IMG/VR virus record: IMGVR_UViG_3300022696_000071
Coordinates: 169,748 to 201,166 of that record
Source of the DNA: a virus
Reading direction: 5' to 3' (one strand)
DNA: 31,419 nt
Shown here: piece by piece, positions 4,165 to 30,940 of the stretch
Position numbering within the stretch: position 1 is the stretch's first letter
Layout of the letters: each line of letters begins with the position of its first letter
Made by a program: the position numbers and the translations under genes
The notes under the pieces: model-generated
What the model saw: the letters and a program-made list of their open reading frames with translations, nothing else
Databases searched by the model: none
Told to the model about the DNA's origin: nothing

Positions 4165-4881
4165 TTAATTTCCGTTACCGTTTTCTTCATATTTTACTCT
4201 TTTATGATGCTCACTCTTCATTTCTTCAATCATGATTTCTCTTAATTTTCTTTGTTGATAAAATGACATAGTTACATAATCGAATTGCTCATCTGCAACT
4301 ATTTCATTAAATATTTCATCAAATAATGTTTCGTGATCATATTCTGAAGAACTAAATTCAGATTTAAATCTTGCTTCTACTGTGTCACAAAGCATTAAAA
4401 GACCAGCTTCGATTGATCGTGGTCTTTGTGTTTTATATCTGTAATCATCTTCATTTTTGCTCTTACTACGATCATAAAATATTTTCAATAATCTCGTCCC
4501 ATGATGTTGACAACACCACTGTATAACATCTCTTGGTATATTATTATCTGGAAGAAGAATTATTGCTGTATCTGATACATGAGTTGTTATTATCTTTTTT
4601 GACATCCACGGATCAAGCGTATCATGGGGATTCTTATCATCTTCTCTTTGATTTTCGCTGAAATATTTTGGATCGACTGTTTTACCAATATCATGATACA
4701 TTCCAGCTATTTCCAATTTGTGAGTATCGAGTTTAAACTCATTACCAAGTGTTATTAATAAAGACGATACTTTTTTACAATGAGCATGAGTTCCTGGTGC
4801 CTTTTCTTTCAATTTTATCATCAATGGATATTGTGGATCTAAAACATCTGTTGATGATGGATTTTCATTTAATTCATTCAT
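4165..4881 (-). CDS. HD-domain metal-dependent phosphohydrolase
   Basis: H..H (THAHCKK) followed about 28 aa later by MYHDIGK (classic HD motif), then further His/Asp (THVSD, LCD). RBS AAAGGAGA. Confidence 0.7.
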   Translation of the reverse strand: MNELNENPSSTDVLDPQYPLMIKLKEKAPGTHAHCKKVSSLLITLGNEFKLDTHKLEIAGMYHDIGKTVDPKYFSENQREDDKNPHDTLDPWMSKKIITTHVSDTAIILLPDNNIPRDVIQWCCQHHGTRLLKIFYDRSKSKNEDDYRYKTQRPRSIEAGLLMLCDTVEARFKSEFSSSEYDHETLFDEIFNEIVADEQFDYVTMSFYQQRKLREIMIEEMKSEHHKRVKYEENGNGN

Positions 4882-9229: not shown

Positions 9230-10276
9230 TTATGAATCATCGTCCATTTCAGGAACATATATATACCTATCAGATATATATGAATTTCTATAATCAGACA
9301 TTAAAATATCATTATATTCTAAATCAACATATGATTCTGTAGTTTCCCATAATCTCAATTTATATAATCCCTTTAACAATGCTTCTTTTTCTAATACCAA
9401 CCATATATAAAGAATAATATTTTCAGCAGTTGGATTAACATCTTTTAAAATTTGATTAACATAAGAATGATCAAATCTATCTACTATATATTTATTTACT
9501 TTATCTTTTAATTTTCCAAAATCTATAGTAAATCCATAATAATCTTTTGGTAATCTTAATGTAACTTCTAATTTATAATCATGACCATGAACATACATAC
9601 ATTTTCCATTATATCCATATAAATTATGCGACGAACAGAATCTAAATATTTTTGTTATATTCATATATGTATCTGGTATAATATGATCATTACATAATGG
9701 TATATAATCTGTAACTAAACCAATATCATCAGATTCATTATTATGTAGTTTACCAAATTCTTCTCTTCTATTTCCACAATAAAAACATATATGCTCTCGT
9801 TCATTTTGATTATGATAAAATTCTGCAATTGATGATAACTGACGAATTGATGTATAGCCGTTTATTTTTTTATTTGAATCTACATATTCAGATATAAATG
9901 TGAATAATTTTTCATCATTTTCTGGTAAATTTGAATCGATATTATAATCAGTTATTAAGTCTAATGATTTTCCCATTGTTTTGATATCAAATATATTGCC
10001 ATATAAATTATATATTTTTCTATTTGGCATTAATTTCATTATTCGCCATTTTATAAGATTTAATAAATCATCAGTACCTTTTATTCTAACATTATAAGAA
10101 TTATACATGTATTTATTAACTTCAAATTTTATTTCAGATATACCATATGACGTATTCTTAATAATAGTATCCAATTTATTTATTGTATCTTTTAAAATAT
10201 CAATACTAATTCTACCAAGTGATATACTTCTTATTAAATCGTTAAATGTATTAAACGTTTCTAATTTTTTTGACAT
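9230..10276 (-). CDS. queD: Two-domain protein: N-terminal unknown region (about 215 aa with CxxC and DHIIP) fused to a C-terminal QueD/6-carboxy-tetrahydropterin synthase (PTPS) domain
   Basis: C-terminal about 125 aa align by eye to E. coli QueD. Matches include FRFCSSHNL/FEAAHRL, KCMYVHGHDY/KCGRLHGHSF, IDFGKLK/IDFAELK, RFDHSYVNQI/RLDHHYLNDI and NPTAENIILYIW/NPTSEVLAKWIW. This covers the Cys-x4-HGH zinc/catalytic motif. Confidence 0.78.
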   Translation of the reverse strand: MSKKLETFNTFNDLIRSISLGRISIDILKDTINKLDTIIKNTSYGISEIKFEVNKYMYNSYNVRIKGTDDLLNLIKWRIMKLMPNRKIYNLYGNIFDIKTMGKSLDLITDYNIDSNLPENDEKLFTFISEYVDSNKKINGYTSIRQLSSIAEFYHNQNEREHICFYCGNRREEFGKLHNNESDDIGLVTDYIPLCNDHIIPDTYMNITKIFRFCSSHNLYGYNGKCMYVHGHDYKLEVTLRLPKDYYGFTIDFGKLKDKVNKYIVDRFDHSYVNQILKDVNPTAENIILYIWLVLEKEALLKGLYKLRLWETTESYVDLEYNDILMSDYRNSYISDRYIYVPEMDDDS

Positions 10277-15204: not shown

Positions 15205-15915
15205 TTACCACTGAAAATCTTGATTATCTATATTATCAACATTTTCTTGTGGTGGTGTTTGTTGTCCTCCACCACCACTATTTTGTTGTGGTTGATTCTG
15301 TTGTCCACCACCTCCACTATAGTTCTGATCATATCCACCATATCCACCACCACTCTGCTGTCCACCTTGACCTCCCTGTTGATTCTGTTGATTTTCTTTA
15401 TACTTCTTTGCTCTATCAACAGCTTCAAAGCAGTCATGAATAAATGGAAGCATTCGTGCGCCGTTTTCAATATATGATTTAAACAGCAACAATTCTTGCC
15501 CTCTCAGCAAGAATGATATGTTTTGTCCTTCACTCTGTGGAGGCAATGTGGTAAGAAGCATACATCCGTTAAGATTGCCTTGAGGGTCTTTTCCAGGAGC
15601 GAGAAATAGTCTGGATGGTTGATTTTGTCTGAAATGCGTTACTTTGAATACATTTTTCAGATCTTGTGGTGCTTTTGGATCTGGATCTTCATATGTTCCC
15701 TGTAATATTCGATCAAAACTTCTTGTTATTCCTACACATTCTCCGGGTGATAGAGAAAAGAAATTTTTGTTGTTCCAATCAAATACTTTTGCTCCTGCTT
15801 GTGGCCTTCCTTGTGCTTGCGGATTCAACGCTCTTGCCATTTCAATTTGAATGTTTCCCTTAACAAGCGTTACTCCAACTTTTAACGACGACATTTTTGG
15901 GTTGTAAAATTGCAT
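15205..15915 (-). CDS. Whirly-like ssDNA-binding protein with SSB-like Gly/Gln-rich tail and acidic-aromatic C-terminus (tentative)
   Basis: AKVFDWNNKNFFSLSPGECVGI resembles the Whirly signature (YDWSRKQVFSLSVTEIG). The downstream region is also similar (YEDPDP vs FFHDP; LLRGQELLLFKSYIE vs ITRAEFAVLISAFN). C-terminal 55 aa are GGQ/GGY repeats ending ...NIDNQDFQW, like bacterial SSB IDL plus acidic tip. RBS GGAGAGAG. Confidence 0.6.
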   Translation of the reverse strand: MQFYNPKMSSLKVGVTLVKGNIQIEMARALNPQAQGRPQAGAKVFDWNNKNFFSLSPGECVGITRSFDRILQGTYEDPDPKAPQDLKNVFKVTHFRQNQPSRLFLAPGKDPQGNLNGCMLLTTLPPQSEGQNISFLLRGQELLLFKSYIENGARMLPFIHDCFEAVDRAKKYKENQQNQQGGQGGQQSGGGYGGYDQNYSGGGGQQNQPQQNSGGGGQQTPPQENVDNIDNQDFQW

Positions 15916-17581: not shown

Positions 17582-17660
17582 TGGTGGACCCTGCTGGATT
17601 CGAACCAGCGAATGATCGGTTATGAGCCGATGGCCTTACCAGACTTGGCGAAGGGTCCAC
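17582..17660 (-). tRNA. tRNA-Met (anticodon CAT; elongator-type; could alternatively be lysidine-modified tRNA-Ile2), CCA encoded
   Basis: Acceptor GTGGACC/GGTCCAC, anticodon stem ATCGG/CCGAT with loop CTCATAA, T-arm GCTGG-TTCGAAT-CCAGC, discriminator A, then CCA. Confidence 0.85.
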
Positions 17661-19191
17661 ATAATTAAATTACAATATATCTTGAACTTTAATATGCCTA
17701 TGGAATTTTTATACGAGATGTGGAATGGATATTAAAATCCATCAAATATTAATTCCGTCACATAAATGCATCTCTATCGCAAATGAGTCAGAAAGGAGTT
17801 AGAAACCGACTCATTTACTATCCCTTTTATTTTATTTAGAAATAACCATAACCATTAATGCCGCCAATCGGCAGGGATTCTGTGATTATTCCATAGGCAT
17901 ATTAAAATTTAAGATAACTTATACACACTAAACTGATCATGGGCATGTATGTGGGAGGATGGTATGCGCGTACCATATTCCATATACATGCAAGCGAGTC
18001 TCATGATCAGTTTACTACATATAAATTGAATGATTTGAGTTCCCCAACATTGACAGTTTGCGTCACCGATCAAGGTCTAAGAACTTATTAAGAGAACCCA
18101 AATCAAAGCATTTGCATATATATGCATTAATCTGATCACAAGCCATGATTACGATACGAGAAATAGGATTAAATAATATCGTAATCATTAGAGAGAAGAA
18201 GGGGTTGTCTGCCGCAACCGTAAAGCTCTCAAACTTGTGACCAGATTAATACATATATAAAAGACTCAAATGGGGAAATGGGACAGTTTGAGTGGGTATT
18301 CTACTTTTTACCATCTCCCCATCTGAGAAACCAAATCGGGCACCATCGTTTGTGGCGATTATACATCCGGTATGAATAATAACCGCCGATGCCCTTATCT
18401 TATCGTTATATCAAACTCATATGTGGGTATCACCTCCTTCCTTAATATTTATCCGATTACTCACAGGCCAATCAGTCTTACACTCAACGCCCATGACATA
18501 AAAGCGAAGAGTTGCTGATTGACGACGACTAATATATTCTAATATGATTCCATGCAGGGAGACTCGTTGGTTAGACAATACTCCCTGAATATGACCGATG
18601 ACACATTGCAATGATTAACGTAAATTAATCACCGATCTTTGATTATCTGCACTCATCGCAAAATAATCACGACATCTTACTGCCGTTTTGACACGACCAC
18701 CACAGCCGCGTCTCAATGCATCAATCATGCACATTTACGTGTACTATGATTGTATCGGATTAGCTTTAATCATCCACTACATGGACGACATTTTATCCGA
18801 CAAATGCATGGAACCATATTACAATATACTAATTAAGAGTTGAAGATCTCGTTATTGATTGACTGCCACGAAAATCAACAACAAAATCTTCAATCTCTTT
18901 AAATTGATGAATACAACGTTATCATAATATATAAACCTTATAAGATTTATATACGTTGCTTGAGCCATAGCTTCCCCATCAAGCAACAGATAACGTTGTA
19001 CTCATAGTAAACTGATCGAGCATCGGTGTTTGTAAACGGAATGAACACCAATCTCTTTCGAGTGCATGATGTTCTCGTTTTGCTCGATCAGTTTATAATG
19101 AACACAATCTTGACTCGGCACGAATCAACCAAACGGATTAAATATTGATAAATAAAGATTGTGCTCATTATAAAATCAAAGATTAATTGAG
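17661..19191 (-). ncRNA. ORF-free, GC-elevated (about 40%), hairpin-dense 1.5-kb region inside the tRNA operon; candidate stable structured RNA(s), identity unknown
   Basis: No ORF of 65 aa or more on either strand (the two 60-64 aa track ORFs lack RBS, and one overlaps tRNA-Leu). Many perfect 10-15 bp inverted repeats, including two about 85-nt hairpins at 17931-18014 and 19007-19092. Flanked by co-oriented tRNAs. Confidence 0.35.
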
Positions 19192-19276: not shown

Positions 19277-19336
19277 ACAAAAATCTAAATTGATCTTTGA
19301 TTATAATTTAATATATATAGTCAGTTGAATATATAT

Positions 19337-24368: not shown

Positions 24369-24992
24369 TTATCTCAGAATGATCTTCATGAAGTAATAAT
24401 AATCATCTTCGACATCTCTCACATCCATGCGAGTATCTGACTTTTTAATTGTGTCTAAAAGATTTCGTTCCGAACACATCTCTTCTATTGATGTCCATAC
24501 TTTTTGATTCATGTATATGGAGTGTTGTTCAGGCAAAAATCGTTTAAATCGCTGAATAAGTCGGTACACTCTTTCTAAATCAATTACAGTAACTGTGAAT
24601 TCATCACCATCAAACAGATTATATGGCACGAATGTGTATTTTGTTCGTTCAACAATTGGACGCTCAAATGGATGAGTTACTTCATGCCTCGTTCTATACC
24701 ATATTGATCTTTCTTCGGCAGTATAGTTTTGAGTACGTTCAGCCATTTCTTGAGAATTGTCAGTCGGATAACATAATGCAAAAGTATTATCTTTGAATTG
24801 ACATCCACGAGCAGCGGAATACGCACGAGAAGCGGAAGGAATATAAAGAGTTGTACCATATCGATTGAAATCTTCAGTGAAGATATCTACGATGGCATCA
24901 GCGTACTCATCTGGTATGTAGTTACACGCGGGATATCCAGTATACTTTACGAGCATGTTTGGCTTGAAATTTAAATTCATTTGCCCCTCCAA
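24369..24992 (-). CDS. hypothetical protein (207 aa; GC content visibly above local background)
   Basis: Intact ORF with RBS GGAGGGG before the ATG. Terminator just downstream. Confidence 0.6.
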   Translation of the reverse strand: MEGQMNLNFKPNMLVKYTGYPACNYIPDEYADAIVDIFTEDFNRYGTTLYIPSASRAYSAARGCQFKDNTFALCYPTDNSQEMAERTQNYTAEERSIWYRTRHEVTHPFERPIVERTKYTFVPYNLFDGDEFTVTVIDLERVYRLIQRFKRFLPEQHSIYMNQKVWTSIEEMCSERNLLDTIKKSDTRMDVRDVEDDYYYFMKIILR

Positions 24993-26382: not shown

Positions 26383-26697
26383 TCATTCTCCTTTCCCGAA
26401 TAGCTTCGCTCTTTTCAATCGGTTTTCATCTACTATATTCCAATATCGATCTTTACAATTACCACTTCCTTTATTGGAACAAAACTTATGTTGATATGAT
26501 TTTTTTCTTATTTTGCGATTACATATTGGACAATTCATATAAGATCCGATATCTGCATTAGAATTCTCTTCATATTTTTGTTTAATAATTGAAATAAAAT
26601 CTCCATTATTATTATCAGCTTTAACTTTCCTACTGTAGAATAAATCTCTTACTTCCCAATAATCATCTCTCATCATTCCCAACTTACCATCACCCAT
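26383..26697 (-). CDS. zinc-ribbon protein (CPICNRK ... KFCSNKGSGNC), 104 aa
   Basis: CxxC plus Cx6C Cys arrangement. Confidence 0.55.
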   Translation of the reverse strand: MGDGKLGMMRDDYWEVRDLFYSRKVKADNNNGDFISIIKQKYEENSNADIGSYMNCPICNRKIRKKSYQHKFCSNKGSGNCKDRYWNIVDENRLKRAKLFGKGE

Positions 26698-26961
26698 GAT
26701 ATATTCTCCTTTATAAATATAATAAATTTTACAAAAAATATATAAAGTGGTATTCTTTGCACTTTATATATTTCCATTTGAGATTTGACATGATAGTCCC
26801 AAATGGTTGTCGGATGGGTTTCATCATATTTCCCTTTTCGAGCCAATGTAATAGTGGCTCTATCCGACTGCCAGATCCCGCAGGTTGCGGGGTTTATAGC
26901 GCGTATCTGTACATGGGATTTTCACCCACTCTGGCCCGCGCTTCGGTCTGGATCACGTCTC

Positions 26962-27870
26962 TTAGATCGCCGAGACGACTATCCGCGTAACCAGTTCAAG
27001 ATCCAATTCTGAATCTTTTTTCTGGTTGCTGCCGATAATCGTGCCACTTGGCGGTCCACCCCAACCACTTTCGACTTTACTGATGTCGTCAGCAGCGGGG
27101 GCAACGGAGATTCCCTTGTTACCAGCGACCGTAAACTTTCTAATCCCTTGGAAATTGGGATTAACAGCCACGACCACTTGTGCACCATTTTCATACAGTG
27201 CACCTATGGTTCCAAAGAAACCAGACTCCACCGAAGCTATAATAAGCCCCGACTTTGTCTTACCCCATGTTGCCTTTTCGACGACCTTCTGCACTTGCCG
27301 TTTATTTTCGGCGTGTGCATCGACGAATTGAACATAATGTTCATTTTCATCGACCAACAGTTTCATCGATCCAAAAGGATCAATTCCACTGCGGGAAATA
27401 TCGTCGAGAAACAATATCCCTTCTTCGACCTTTTTCGCGTTATCTTTCGGATTAACCAGAAAGATACCGGAAATTATGTCGGAGAGGAACGGGGGTTCCC
27501 CGATAGAGTATTTTCGGATCTCGTCCGGGCCGAATCTATCCATCGTATCGATGTATTTTACGATACGCTGAGTATCTTCGGTGTAGACACCGACTGGCTT
27601 ATATTTATCATAAGCCTGCCAGGTCGCCGAAACGAGACCTTCAGATCCTTCGCCATGATGATCAAAGTTCATCAGATCGACTCGACCGCTTCCACCGCAT
27701 TCGATACAAACTACGGTTGGGTCGGAAAGATCTTCAGCCTTTGCATCGCCAAAGACGAACTCAATGGCATCGGCCTTAACGTCGAAACGAAAAGCTAAAA
27801 GCCAAAGAGCACCGATAATATCAAGATCGACCTTAAACCCACAGACGATCTTGGAAATATTATCCAACAT
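26962..27870 (-). CDS. hypothetical protein encoded by an anomalously GC-rich (about 50%) gene, 302 aa; function unknown
   Basis: Perfect RBS GGAGGGAGG 6 nt before the ATG at 27870. Gly/Val/Asp/Ala-rich composition typical of a high-GC donor. ILFLDDISRSG is weakly reminiscent of a PRPP-binding loop (speculative). Overlapping long plus-strand ORFs are GC artefacts. Confidence 0.6.
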   Translation of the reverse strand: MLDNISKIVCGFKVDLDIIGALWLLAFRFDVKADAIEFVFGDAKAEDLSDPTVVCIECGGSGRVDLMNFDHHGEGSEGLVSATWQAYDKYKPVGVYTEDTQRIVKYIDTMDRFGPDEIRKYSIGEPPFLSDIISGIFLVNPKDNAKKVEEGILFLDDISRSGIDPFGSMKLLVDENEHYVQFVDAHAENKRQVQKVVEKATWGKTKSGLIIASVESGFFGTIGALYENGAQVVVAVNPNFQGIRKFTVAGNKGISVAPAADDISKVESGWGGPPSGTIIGSNQKKDSELDLELVTRIVVSAI

Positions 27871-28273
27871 AAGAATCCTCCCTCCATTGGATTTACGTGT
27901 CCAATGCTCCGTGCTTATAATATTCAGTCACCAGATTTGTCAGATCTGTTTACCCAGAATATCTTCGCTGGAGTCTCTCACGGCATATTTTCATAAACGT
28001 AATATGCAACGTTATGTTAGAATTTAATATATATAGTGATTTTAATAAAAAACACGTAATGCAAACGTGTTCCCTGGAGCATATTCCAGTATCATTTTTG
28101 TTAGATATATGGCTGACTAAACCATTACTTTTATAGTGGTATTCCACTGATTTTTTCAATGCTTTCTCACATTGCCGAGTTTTTTGCTTCTCGTATAAAG
28201 TTTTTACCAATTCTTACGCGATTGGATGGCTACACTTTATAAGTAACCATTTAGCACGTTTTCAGATTAGAAG

Positions 28274-28822
28274 TTACCCTCTAATCTTACAATATTCCAA
28301 TCCAAGAGATATAGCTTCTTGGACTAAAACTATTGTACCAACCAATATCTCCGAAGAGACATTAGATGGAAAAACTGGATCTCCGGGATGGAAAGTGTAT
28401 ACTACTTCACTTTCCATTTCCTGACCAAGAATCAGCACAGTATAATCGACAGAATATCGATGAAGATCAATATCCTCTCGATCTACAACTGCAGATACTT
28501 GGCCCGTCTCTTTACCATCATCGAGTTCGATGACGGTTAGATTCGGGAGATCATCCAACCTCACGACACCCACTTTACCCCCCAAATTATGGGTGATGAA
28601 TGCCGTACATCCGTCTGCTACAGACGGATGTTTAAATGGTTTCCATTCAGCATTAATGAGATCGTCTTCAGTGACTCTCCCATTAAATGTCGAACCGATA
28701 CCATCCGGTTGGCGAGACTTAAGCGTATTTTGAAAGTAGTCGGTCGGAAATCCTTCGACTTCTTTCGAGAGACGCTTAGTCTCATGGATAGCATTTTCGA
28801 TTCGTTTCTGAATCGTATCCAT
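28274..28822 (-). CDS. hypothetical protein encoded by a second GC-rich (about 50%) gene, 182 aa
   Basis: Intact ORF. Same compositional anomaly as 26962..27870, separated from it by an AT-rich 400-nt spacer. Confidence 0.55.
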   Translation of the reverse strand: MDTIQKRIENAIHETKRLSKEVEGFPTDYFQNTLKSRQPDGIGSTFNGRVTEDDLINAEWKPFKHPSVADGCTAFITHNLGGKVGVVRLDDLPNLTVIELDDGKETGQVSAVVDREDIDLHRYSVDYTVLILGQEMESEVVYTFHPGDPVFPSNVSSEILVGTIVLVQEAISLGLEYCKIRG

Positions 28823-28872
28823 TAATACTTAATATATATATAATATATTCATTATATATATAAAATTTTAAT

Positions 28873-28889
28873 CTATCTCGAAGAGATAG
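28873..28889 (-). terminator. terminator-like hairpin (CTATCTC-gaa-GAGATAG) with U-rich minus-strand tail, 6 nt after the stop of the lipoprotein gene
   Basis: Read directly. Confidence 0.45.
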
Positions 28890-28894
28890 TAGAT

Positions 28895-29152
28895 CTATTT
28901 TTTAAGATGCAATATATCATATGTACTTAAATATGCTTCAATAGCAGATTCTATAAGTTCAGTATTAACTTCAGCAGAACCAACAGATATTCTATTTCCA
29001 CCAGAAGTTTCTGCCTTAAGATCATATACCTCTGTAAAGATTCTCATATATGTATATTCAGATCCATCAGCCATTTTGATATGAACAGAAGTACAACCAT
29101 TTAAACCAATTAAAAAGATACAAAAAATTAAAACGATTAAATTTTTCATCAC
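28895..29152 (-). CDS. small lipoprotein (signal peptide + lipobox LNGC), 85 aa
   Basis: MMKNLIVLIFCIFLIGLNGCTS: hydrophobic signal ending in L-x-G-C. Confidence 0.55.
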   Translation of the reverse strand: MMKNLIVLIFCIFLIGLNGCTSVHIKMADGSEYTYMRIFTEVYDLKAETSGGNRISVGSAEVNTELIESAIEAYLSTYDILHLKK

Positions 29153-29309
29153 ATTTTCCTTTCTTAATATAAGTTTTTTTATTTAAACATAAAAAAATTT
29201 GTGTTGTACAAAAAGGATTAAAAAAGTTAAACAGTATGATAAAAACGATATTTCCTATTTTATAATATATAAGAAATATCGTTATAATACTACTCTCCAC
29301 AAATAAAAA

Positions 29310-29339
29310 GGGAAACCAATTATAAAAAATTGATTTCCC
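29310..29339 (-). terminator. rho-independent terminator immediately 3' of tRNA-Pro (12-bp stem with one mismatch, then UUUUUAUUUG on the minus transcript)
   Basis: GGGAAACCAATT ... AATTGATTTCCC inverted repeat read directly. Confidence 0.6.
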
Positions 29340-29350
29340 TTATGATAAAT

Positions 29351-29427
29351 TGGTCGGGGCAGAGGGATTTGAACCCCCGACAATGCGGACCCAAACCGCA
29401 CACTCTACCAGACTGAGATATACCCCG
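29351..29427 (-). tRNA. tRNA-Pro (anticodon TGG), CCA encoded
   Basis: Acceptor CGGGGTA/TGCCCCG (C1-G72, as in bacterial tRNA-Pro), anticodon stem TGCGG/CCGCA with loop TTTGGGT, T-loop TTCAAAT, discriminator A, then CCA. Confidence 0.85.
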
Positions 29428-29434
29428 AAATATA

Positions 29435-29842
29435 TTATGTTGTAATCTTCGTCTCAACATCGCCATCAGCAATATCAAAATGGATTCTCTTCTTTAATCC
29501 AACACATGATGCAATTGCTGGTAGCATTGTTTGTCTTAACGATTTTGCAATTATTCCTTTCACTCCAATTAGCCTACCAGTGTCTATCATCGTTGATGCT
29601 GATGCAGATACAACAATCAATGATGGATATTCATTTATTTGTACATCCAACTTTTTGGGATCTTTAACAAGAATATGTAATTGCGAGATTGCTCTTTCTT
29701 TGAATAATTCGAATGCTTTTTCATTACTACTTATAGATTCATTATCTTTTGATTGTTTTTCTTTTTCCACAACGCCATTATCTTTTGTATCTTTTGTCAT
29801 TTGGTATCCTTTCATTTTTGCATCAACTATAGTAAACGCCAT
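29435..29842 (-). CDS. KH-domain-like RNA-binding protein (135 aa)
   Basis: GRLIGVKGIIAKSLRQ fits the KH GxxG loop pattern (I-G-x-x-G-x-x-I). Confidence 0.5.
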   Translation of the reverse strand: MAFTIVDAKMKGYQMTKDTKDNGVVEKEKQSKDNESISSNEKAFELFKERAISQLHILVKDPKKLDVQINEYPSLIVVSASASTMIDTGRLIGVKGIIAKSLRQTMLPAIASCVGLKKRIHFDIADGDVETKITT

Positions 29843-30205: not shown

Positions 30206-30378
30206 CACATATAACATATTATTAATAAATGCAACTTAATAATGTTAATATTTAATATATATAATCATAAAATTATTTTTTTCTTTTTATATAGTTTCAT
30301 TTGATAATCTCCAACTCTACAAACACACTCATCAGACGATTCGACTTGAGTATATTTTGAGCATGGAGTTTCTTCGTA

Positions 30379-30905: not shown

Positions 30906-30940
30906 CCGTTTACATGTTATAATTTAATATATATATATAT

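Follow-up and report, generated by a model that had tools for sequence, protein, structure and literature searches.

What do two genes of strikingly high GC content do in the genome of an AT-rich phage, and does their composition tell us where they came from and when? The question is raised by a stretch of 31,419 nucleotides (nt) of viral DNA (IMG/VR record IMGVR_UViG_3300022696_000071, positions 169,748 to 201,166; the whole stretch is called the window below, and positions are counted from its first letter), in which two neighbouring genes encode proteins of 302 and 182 amino acids (aa). An earlier note on the sequence had explained the pair as a recent acquisition from a high-GC donor and had suspected a role of the larger protein in nucleotide or NAD metabolism. 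Our analysis leads to a different picture: the 302-aa protein is modelled as a divergent DHH/DHHA1-fold phosphoesterase from a bacterial family linked to type III CRISPR signalling, a conserved structured RNA lies directly behind its gene, and the GC excess is a trait of both gene families.

The 302-aa protein and its bacterial family

The 302-aa gene (26962-27870), which like all genes of the window lies on the minus strand, encodes a protein that matched none of the models of Pfam, PHROG, NCBIfam and PADLOC and, by sequence, nothing in the PDB. Among 16 members of its family, none matched Pfam DHH (PF01368) or DHHA1 (PF02272) at E <= 10, and three gave a weak match to MYG1_exonuc (E = 0.075). 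An alignment (A1) based on 16 close homologues at 34-52% identity yielded an AlphaFold2 model with a predicted local distance difference test score (pLDDT) of 92.9 and a predicted template modelling (TM) score of 0.86, and the best 50 matches of this model in a Foldseek search against the PDB were all of the DHH family (E = 3e-8 to 3e-4, probability 0.96-1.00), among them PAP phosphatase (8a8k), TM1595, PggH (7d62), GdpP, DhhP, NrnA, RecJ, PPX1 and family II pyrophosphatase. In A1, D70-H71-H72 is invariant, D15 and D17 of the DxD motif are at least 90% conserved, and E57 and D111 are conserved as well, together with an N-terminal K-x-D-x-D, the motifs C-I-E-x-G-G and Y-x-x-x-x-D, and a C-terminal G-W-G-G-P-x-x-G-T-I-x-G-S (W-G-G-P at residues 270-273). 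The model, the exclusively DHH-type list of matches and the conserved DxD and DHH motifs together identify the protein, at the level of a structure prediction, as a divergent two-domain DHH/DHHA1 phosphoesterase with its metal site intact, for which Mn2+/Mg2+-dependent hydrolysis is predicted. The TM-scores to canonical DHH-DHHA1 phosphoesterases are just 0.3-0.5.

The DHH motif is kept in 148 of 163 family members, and the C-terminal motif varies between WGGP (73), WGGR (25) and WGGH (14), whereas GGGH, the canonical substrate-binding motif of DHHA1 domains, never occurs. An N-terminal membrane anchor was not seen, as the protein starts with a core beta-strand (residues 7-11) and the DxD helix (16-28), and its most hydrophobic 19-mer (residues 8-26, Kyte-Doolittle score 1.76) holds K13, D15 and D17 and is thus a core element. 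The segment ILFLDDISRSG, in which the earlier note had seen a loop binding phosphoribosyl pyrophosphate (PRPP) and thereby a hint of NAD metabolism, occupies residues 152-162 of a variable, unconserved helix, and we rejected this idea.

Searched with a profile, 1.84 billion cluster representatives yielded 483 members of the family, 169 of them at E <= 1e-30, and the named genomes are nearly all Patescibacteria (Falkowbacteria, Jorgensenbacteria, Saccharibacteria and 'Patescibacteria group'). No members were found in IMG/VR or among GenBank phages. Two members of the family are fused to effectors with the CARF domain of type III CRISPR systems, and these two fusions are independent of each other. 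The first, P0064 (1021 aa), joins a DHH-like part (residues 2-276) to CARF7 and HD domains (PADLOC CARF7--CARF_HD, E = 1e-30; Pfam Cas_APE2256, 5e-8; HD-CE, 4e-15). In the second, P0065 (975 aa), a CARF4-PD(D/E)xK effector precedes the DHH-like part (residues 693-974), and its gene adjoins a complete type III-B operon with three RAMP genes (Cmr1/4/6 positions), Cmr3, Cmr5 and Cas10/Cmr2. Upstream of P0064 lies a gene with homology to the N-terminal part of P0065. Both fusions retain the DLD and FDHH motifs, and with 35% and 32% identity to the phage protein (E = 1e-33 and 1e-27 for P0064 and P0065, respectively) they are as close to it as the stand-alone bacterial members. In a further locus, L051, a CARF gene of the 'APE2256 family' (PDB 8phb, E = 5e-26) is followed, 220 nt downstream and on the same strand, by a stand-alone member. 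Finally, a census of 150 open reading frames (ORFs) within 4.5 kb of the DHH-like gene at 28 loci contained three Csx1/Csm6 CARF-HEPN genes (best 3e-25 and 4e-32) and one Cas1 gene, the commonest neighbours being TrmB/CasR-like regulators (5) and integrases (4).

Genes and RNA motifs of another kind were also seen near family members. Genes for an RtcB RNA ligase and NUDIX hydrolases occur at a distance of a few kb from DHH-like genes of the stand-alone type (L025, 4812-5810 and 6527-6916; L003, 12424-12873), and tRNA genes directly follow the DHH-like gene in L036 and L037. Sub-threshold matches to hammerhead ribozymes (29-33 bits, with gathering scores of 37-48.5) occur on the gene's strand in L023 (1201-1269 and 2622-2688, flanking the gene and its RNA), L032 (3580-3634) and L057 (1814-1884, type II, with intact CUGAUGA and GAAAC cores), while the window contains none.

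A conserved structured RNA behind the 302-aa gene

The earlier note had described the region downstream of the 302-aa gene as a GC-rich 3' untranslated region with stable hairpins. The GC content of this stretch is 40%. A sequence of 237 nt downstream of the stop codon folds at z = -5.8; it forms a multi-branched element, about 180 nt long, with a terminator hairpin behind it. The element (26782-26961, minus strand) begins at the stop codon, is composed of a 5' and a 3' domain, and ends in a conserved GUCAUGUCAAA. In the 5' domain, a stem GCGCG/CGCGC encloses a T-loop-like hairpin (GUGGG-UGAAAAU-CCCAU), followed by ACAGA and CUAUAAA, and in the 3' domain a stem GUCGGAU/AUCCGAC encloses two hairpins. 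Behind it, an intrinsic-terminator-like hairpin (26725-26773, minus strand) with a perfect stem of 14 bp (26736-26749/26760-26773) and a subsequent U run closes the unit of gene and RNA.

Blocks of the same sequence stand directly behind the stop codons of the nearest related genes (L023, L024 and L067; proteins 48-52% identical), namely CCGAAGCGC..GCC..AG(U)GGGUG(A/C)AA(A/U)UCCC..ACAGA..GCGCUAUA, a loop AUA.GA..AA, and GUCAUGUCAAA. R2, a covariance model built on the 5' domain, scored 67-94 bits at the window and these three loci, and nowhere else in 412 kb. The alignment of this RNA, here called group A, comprises four sequences. At the four loci the RNA always begins at the stop codon, and its nucleotide identity of about 70-78% contrasts with 48-52% amino-acid identity of the adjacent protein, being higher than one would expect from proteins that agree in roughly half of their residues. 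The helices vary by compensatory changes: GCGCG/CGCGC is replaced by GCGCC/GGCGC, UCGGAU/AUCCGA by UCCUCC/GGAGGA or CCUUCC/GGAAGG, and GGG/CCC by GGGC/GCCC, and an A-U pair at a stem base alternates with G-C in L067.

More distant homologues carry another module (group B) 40-170 nt after the stop codon, always on the strand of the gene, with a stem around (U)GAAG...hairpin...CUAUAAG and then GCGAGACC. With scores of 32-50 bits the group-B model was found at 10 loci, and the control phage loci gave no match. In its stem P1 all 6 of 6 pairs covary, and 88.5% are paired as against 56% in shuffled and 27-51% in slid alignments, values that have to be read with the alignment having been fitted to the model. 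The two models do not match each other's sequences, so that a homology of both RNA groups is only suggested by the short blocks they have in common. Rfam yielded nothing at gathering score or E <= 10 over 26400-29500 and no match for the RNA element in 15 related loci, a pattern search for the group-A RNA in IMG/VR was negative, and neither model found a copy at the CARF-fused or CRISPR-linked loci L068, L069 and L051. With its clear covariation, the downstream RNA is a candidate for a new class of structured RNA, and it could act as a 3' stabiliser, as a partner RNA, or as a leader with terminator for the next gene.

Two further observations concern RNAs in related loci. A second group-B copy (34.8 bits) lies in L032 at 4741-4791, 1.4 kb downstream of the first and without an adjoining DHH-like gene. 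In addition, two hairpins in succession, the first GC-rich and the second a long one of the form CCCUUUCAGAGAUU...UCUGAAAGGGA, make up a second recurrent element, seen by eye within ~150 nt behind the DHH-like stop codon in L039, L048/L060, L055, L056, L061, L049 and L059.

Composition, phage setting and origin of the two genes

The source of the window is a novel AT-rich phage of about 200 kb. Seven tRNA genes lie in the window, along with genes for a helicase, an SbcD-like nuclease, a QueD-like protein and both subunits, large and small, of a T4-type topoisomerase II that reaches at most 32% identity with known phages. A 201-kb JGI contig is on record with identical copies of the 302-aa and the 182-aa protein. 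Within this background, the GC content per 300-nt window rises from 21-29% on either side to 42-49% at 26701-27900 and 46% at 28501-28800. The 302-aa gene has 46.4% GC (56/36/47% at the three codon positions) and the 182-aa gene (28274-28822, minus strand) 42.3% (57/35/35%), with flanks of 27.8% on the left and 28.1% on the right. The anomaly that the earlier note reported is hence real, its figure of about 50% being slightly high with a peak of 49%, and the flanks are as AT-rich as it had stated, whereas the 403-nt spacer between the genes is intermediate at 34.7%. Both proteins are rich in the residues it had named (Gly, Ala, Val and Asp), with a combined share of G, A, V, D, P and R of 42% and 39% compared to 28% in the other ORFs of the window. 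Since the excess is strongest at synonymous sites, where the other 33 ORFs have a third-position GC (GC3) of 10-30%, it is not solely an effect of these residues.

The long spurious ORFs noted before are likewise present as antisense frames of 216 and 101 aa opposite the GC-rich genes. We rejected the 216-aa frame as a gene, its codon-aligned counterpart being open in many homologues, though irregularly; the frame is open because TTA, CTA and TCA codons are avoided, a usual side effect that calls for no second gene. A structured non-coding RNA in place of the two genes was rejected too, given the diverse protein homologues and the confident folds of both ORFs.

Comparison with related genomes changes the meaning of the island. 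At 19 of the 23 bacterial loci whose flanks could be used, the DHH-like gene is richer in GC than the neighbouring ORFs, with a median excess of 11 points in GC, 14 in GC3 and 9 in GC at first and second positions (GC1+2; Wilcoxon p = 1e-5, 2e-4 and 1e-6, respectively), GC1+2 being raised in 22 of the 23, and the island there consists of the gene and the first ~200 nt downstream. At each of 18 phage loci the 182-aa gene has more GC than the DNA around it (by 1.4 to 16.7 points), for example in a second AT-rich phage (L005) with 41% against 24% GC, where the gene stands at a different locus than in the window and on the strand opposite to its neighbours. As the excess is found across both families, it is a trait of the gene families and carries no time stamp for this phage. 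It fits mobile cargo genes moving between genomes, or some selection on composition, but not one recent event in this phage. A high-GC donor is consequently not borne out, and the expectation under which the acquisition idea was to fall, namely that homologues of similar GC occur everywhere, holds in part, a similar excess being present wherever the genes occur. As this example illustrates, the presence of a GC island in phage DNA does not necessarily put a date on a transfer, because the excess here tracks the gene family over dozens of genomes.

The 182-aa gene belongs to a phage-borne family of more than 110 homologues, all without annotation or Pfam domain, and its product matched nothing in Pfam, PHROGs, NCBIfam or PADLOC. 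Members occur in 16 IMG/VR contigs, four of which measure 241-273 kb, and in one prophage-like region; neighbours conserved across unrelated phages were not found. They have a conserved T-x-H-P-G-D-P-x-x-P-S motif, with K104, T143, H145, P146, G147 and S153 among the invariant residues of the family. The AlphaFold2 model (pLDDT 92.5) had no significant Foldseek match. The protein is a phage accessory gene product and possibly an RNA-directed enzyme, for which alone the BECR-fold RNase toxins (YxiD-CT, MafB2-CT, CdiA-CT, YafQ, BrnT and colicin D) are candidates for comparison. A subgroup of 319-aa proteins (P0222, P0227, P0230-P0238, P0241, P0242 and P0244), on contigs of up to 173 kb, combines the 182-aa module with ~140 further residues.

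Both genes are provided with signals of phage type. The 302-aa gene has a Shine-Dalgarno sequence, GGAGGGAGG (27877-27885, minus strand), read directly 6 nt 5' of its ATG, in agreement with the ribosome-binding site claimed for it earlier. No Shine-Dalgarno sequence was found 5' of the 182-aa gene, for which the same claim had been made. A promoter-like 12-mer, TATATATATTAA, lies on the minus strand about 150 nt upstream of the 302-aa gene (28024-28035) and again at 28829-28840, where it ends 7 nt 5' of the ATG of the 182-aa gene, so that the mRNA of the latter, lacking a Shine-Dalgarno sequence, may be leaderless. The 12-mer occurs exactly five times in the window (also at 19308-19319, 30252-30263 and 30924-30935), always on the minus strand and always intergenic, and 15 matches at up to one mismatch compare to 5.8 expected, which makes it a candidate phage promoter element. 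A terminator-like hairpin ACACGU-UUGCAUU-ACGUGU with a U run (28046-28070, minus strand), read directly and also contained in the minimum free energy structure, lies 3' of the 182-aa gene. With a terminator-like hairpin behind each gene and a TATATATATTAA of its own, the two genes would form separate transcription units with phage-type signals, from which their expression in the phage, as the earlier note had proposed, is predicted. Judged from the sequence, the segment thus appears to hold two cargo genes, each transcribed on its own and foreign in composition, in the tRNA-rich region of the phage.

How the genes came there can be answered in part. The synonymous-site GC, far beyond the range of the phage, the occurrence of the 302-aa family otherwise in Patescibacteria, or candidate phyla radiation (CPR) bacteria, and its absence from IMG/VR and GenBank phages support a foreign origin as far as sequence data go, and the position of the phage copy as an outlier within a bacterial family supports acquisition from a cellular source. 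Horizontal acquisition accordingly stands as claimed before, while its 'recent' date does not, in view of relatives of at most 52% identity, the phage-type signals and the family-wide excess. The closest relatives are 52% identical for the 302-aa and 51% for the 182-aa protein, so that for the former no donor can be named and no date assigned. The two genes co-occur nowhere else, insertion scars at the island were not found (flanking repeats are AT-rich chance repeats), and no related phage without the island was found: megablast against GenBank phages gave no hit at all, and for the flanking genes IMG/VR and GenBank phages contained no relatives. An origin without any horizontal acquisition, the genes being old residents of the phage lineage whose GC is kept high by constraints on amino-acid composition or mRNA structure, would accommodate the family-wide excess including the raised GC1+2, the equally GC-rich 182-aa homologue in L005 and the phage-type promoter-like motifs at both genes. 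We consider it quite unlikely, since amino-acid constraint cannot explain a GC3 elevated by some 30 points in the window and, over the loci, by 14 points at the median, the DHH-like family is absent from the phage collections searched, the genes are never together elsewhere, and in L005 the 182-aa gene has another locus and orientation.

Other parts of the window are unusual in their own right. A stretch of 1.5 kb between tRNA-Met and tRNA-Leu (17659-19190, minus strand; 35-42% GC) has no ORF longer than 64 aa, no Rfam family and no GenBank phage match, and contains a series of inverted repeats of 17-36 bp, each around 43-181 nt. Its part 18200-19190 folds at z = -12, and a 21-bp stem (19171-19191/19285-19305) surrounds tRNA-Leu; the stretch looks like an array of small structured RNAs in processing stems. 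The ORFs 15205-15915 (39% GC, weak Whirly-like match) and 24369-24992 (37% GC, GC3 30%, no family) may be other cargo genes, and a 348-aa protein with a C-terminal QueD/PTPS domain (9230-10276) hints at 7-deazaguanine DNA modification in the phage.

Proposed function and known systems

The 302-aa protein is best read, with a probability of about 40%, as a DHH-fold phosphodiesterase that hydrolyses a nucleotide signal of type III CRISPR. Two cellular enzymes provide the precedents. The MAD DHH-DHHA1 nuclease (Zhao et al. 2020) is described as degrading cyclic tetra-adenylate (cA4), and fusions of an effector with a signal-degrading enzyme are taken there as a sign of a regulatory role (PMC8284326). 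The DHH phosphodiesterase NrN specifically degrades S-adenosylmethionine-AMP (SAM-AMP), the signal of a type III-B system (Chi et al. 2023, PMC10600005). From these precedents, the CARF fusions and the adjacency to cmr and CARF genes we infer that the family hydrolyses a nucleotide signal made by Cas10; the phage copy would then be a counter-defence enzyme. Composition, fold, catalytic motifs, fusions, gene neighbourhoods and the conservation of the RNA are shown by the data, whereas the substrate, the role in counter-defence and the co-transcription with the RNA are inferred. During infection, the phage enzyme would hydrolyse the host signal, be it a cyclic oligoadenylate (cOA), its linear product or a related Cas10 product, and the CARF effectors would consequently not be switched on, or would be shut off early. 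The enzyme would thus act as a viral off-switch, analogous to viral ring nucleases and to MAD and NrN, from a gene presumably co-transcribed with the structured RNA of about 180 nt, and the 182-aa gene would be an unrelated phage accessory gene beside it by chance. The earlier hint at counter-defence pointed in the right direction, although the evidence is now the DHH fold and the CARF links and not a PRPP loop.

Several points weigh against this reading. CARF fusions are just two of the 150 family representatives listed, most members stand alone in CPR genomes beside housekeeping genes or TrmB-type regulators, and the Cas10/CARF linkage holds for the family, not for the phage copy. The replacement of GGGH by WGG[P/R/H] means that the substrate cannot be deduced from known enzymes, and a model of signal degradation leaves the conserved 3' RNA unexplained. 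Moreover, NrN does not cleave cOA (PMC10600005), and DHH enzymes in this niche can accordingly have unexpected substrates.

A serious rival, possible if somewhat less probable, is nucleotide salvage, in which a nanoRNase, pAp phosphatase or oligoribonuclease of NrnA type would convert host RNA and DNA fragments to mononucleotides as auxiliary metabolism without a link to defence. The best structural matches include PAP phosphatase (8a8k), NrnA and TM1595, and other genes of nucleotide and DNA metabolism lie near the 302-aa gene in the phage. CPR bacteria depend on nucleotide salvage, and most members are stand-alone genes of these bacteria in mixed housekeeping neighbourhoods. Two independent fusions to CARF effectors and the cmr adjacency, however, are not expected of housekeeping nanoRNases, a compositional island in most host genomes is atypical of a core salvage gene, and the family lacks the GGGH motif, which binds the 5' phosphate in NrnA-type enzymes. 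The conserved RNA suggests yet another explanation, which we regard as rather improbable: protein and RNA form a functional pair, the RNA being the enzyme's substrate, guide or cofactor, or else a ligand-sensing leader that brings its own terminator and controls the next gene, and the system would then serve to process or repair RNA in the tRNA region. Here one may point to an RNA better conserved than the adjacent protein at the four closest loci, with its start fixed at the stop codon and its helices maintained by compensatory changes, to the related module behind the gene in 10 further loci with all six P1 pairs covarying, to RtcB, NUDIX or tRNA genes nearby in L025, L042, L036 and L037, and to the order of aptamer-like fold, terminator, ribosome-binding site and next ORF in the window. 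The absence of the RNA at L068, L069 and L051 implies that the protein can do without it, a copy is detectable in fewer than half of the loci, no Rfam family matches, and the group-A alignment is limited to its four sequences. A bolder combination, to which we likewise give little credence, would unite the strands: a new DHH-fold class of viral anti-type-III enzymes, an RNA of the same module serving as sensor or decoy for the signal or as message stabiliser under CARF RNases, and a family-wide GC excess of gene and RNA marking a mobile defence/counter-defence cassette that Patescibacteria and their phages exchange.

If degradation of a Cas10 signal is indeed the function, viral ring nucleases would include a second kind with an unrelated structure, and an unannotated family of about 480 sequence clusters, mainly of Patescibacteria, would obtain a function. 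Among known systems NrN is closely similar, being a soluble DHH/DHHA1 phosphodiesterase of ~300 aa with PggH and GdpP as nearest folds (PMC10600005), as is the 302-aa protein by its model, and both are linked to type III CRISPR signalling and sometimes fused to an effector. The partners differ, however, with CorA for NrN and CARF-HD and CARF-PD(D/E)xK for the 302-aa family (CorA was neither among the 25 commonest Pfam families listed for the 150 neighbouring ORFs of the 28 loci nor in the window), and the 302-aa protein is phage-borne, has no sequence match to DHH/DHHA1 models, and carries WGGP instead of GGGH. With MAD the protein would share the degradation of a type III second messenger by a DHH/DHHA1 enzyme, which for the 302-aa protein is proposed, whereas MAD is membrane-anchored and the 302-aa protein begins at the DHH core without an extra N-terminal segment. 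AcrIII-1 (DUF1874) and Csx1-Crn2 correspond in the proposed logic, in which a viral enzyme destroys cOA and cellular relatives are fused to CARF effectors, yet they are metal-independent and have the DUF1874 fold, which the 302-aa protein, predicted to be metal-dependent, does not show (DHH/DHHA1 fold in the model, no Pfam match). NrnA, PggH, the catalytic domain of GdpP and archaeal PAP phosphatase resemble it in the two-domain fold, the DxD and DHH motifs and in size, and differ from it in that it has neither a Pfam DHH/DHHA1 nor a PDB sequence match nor GGGH, with the low TM-scores given above. What the window adds to these systems is most likely a variant of the DHH signal-degrading enzymes MAD and NrN and of the viral ring nucleases, with an unclassified conserved RNA attached.

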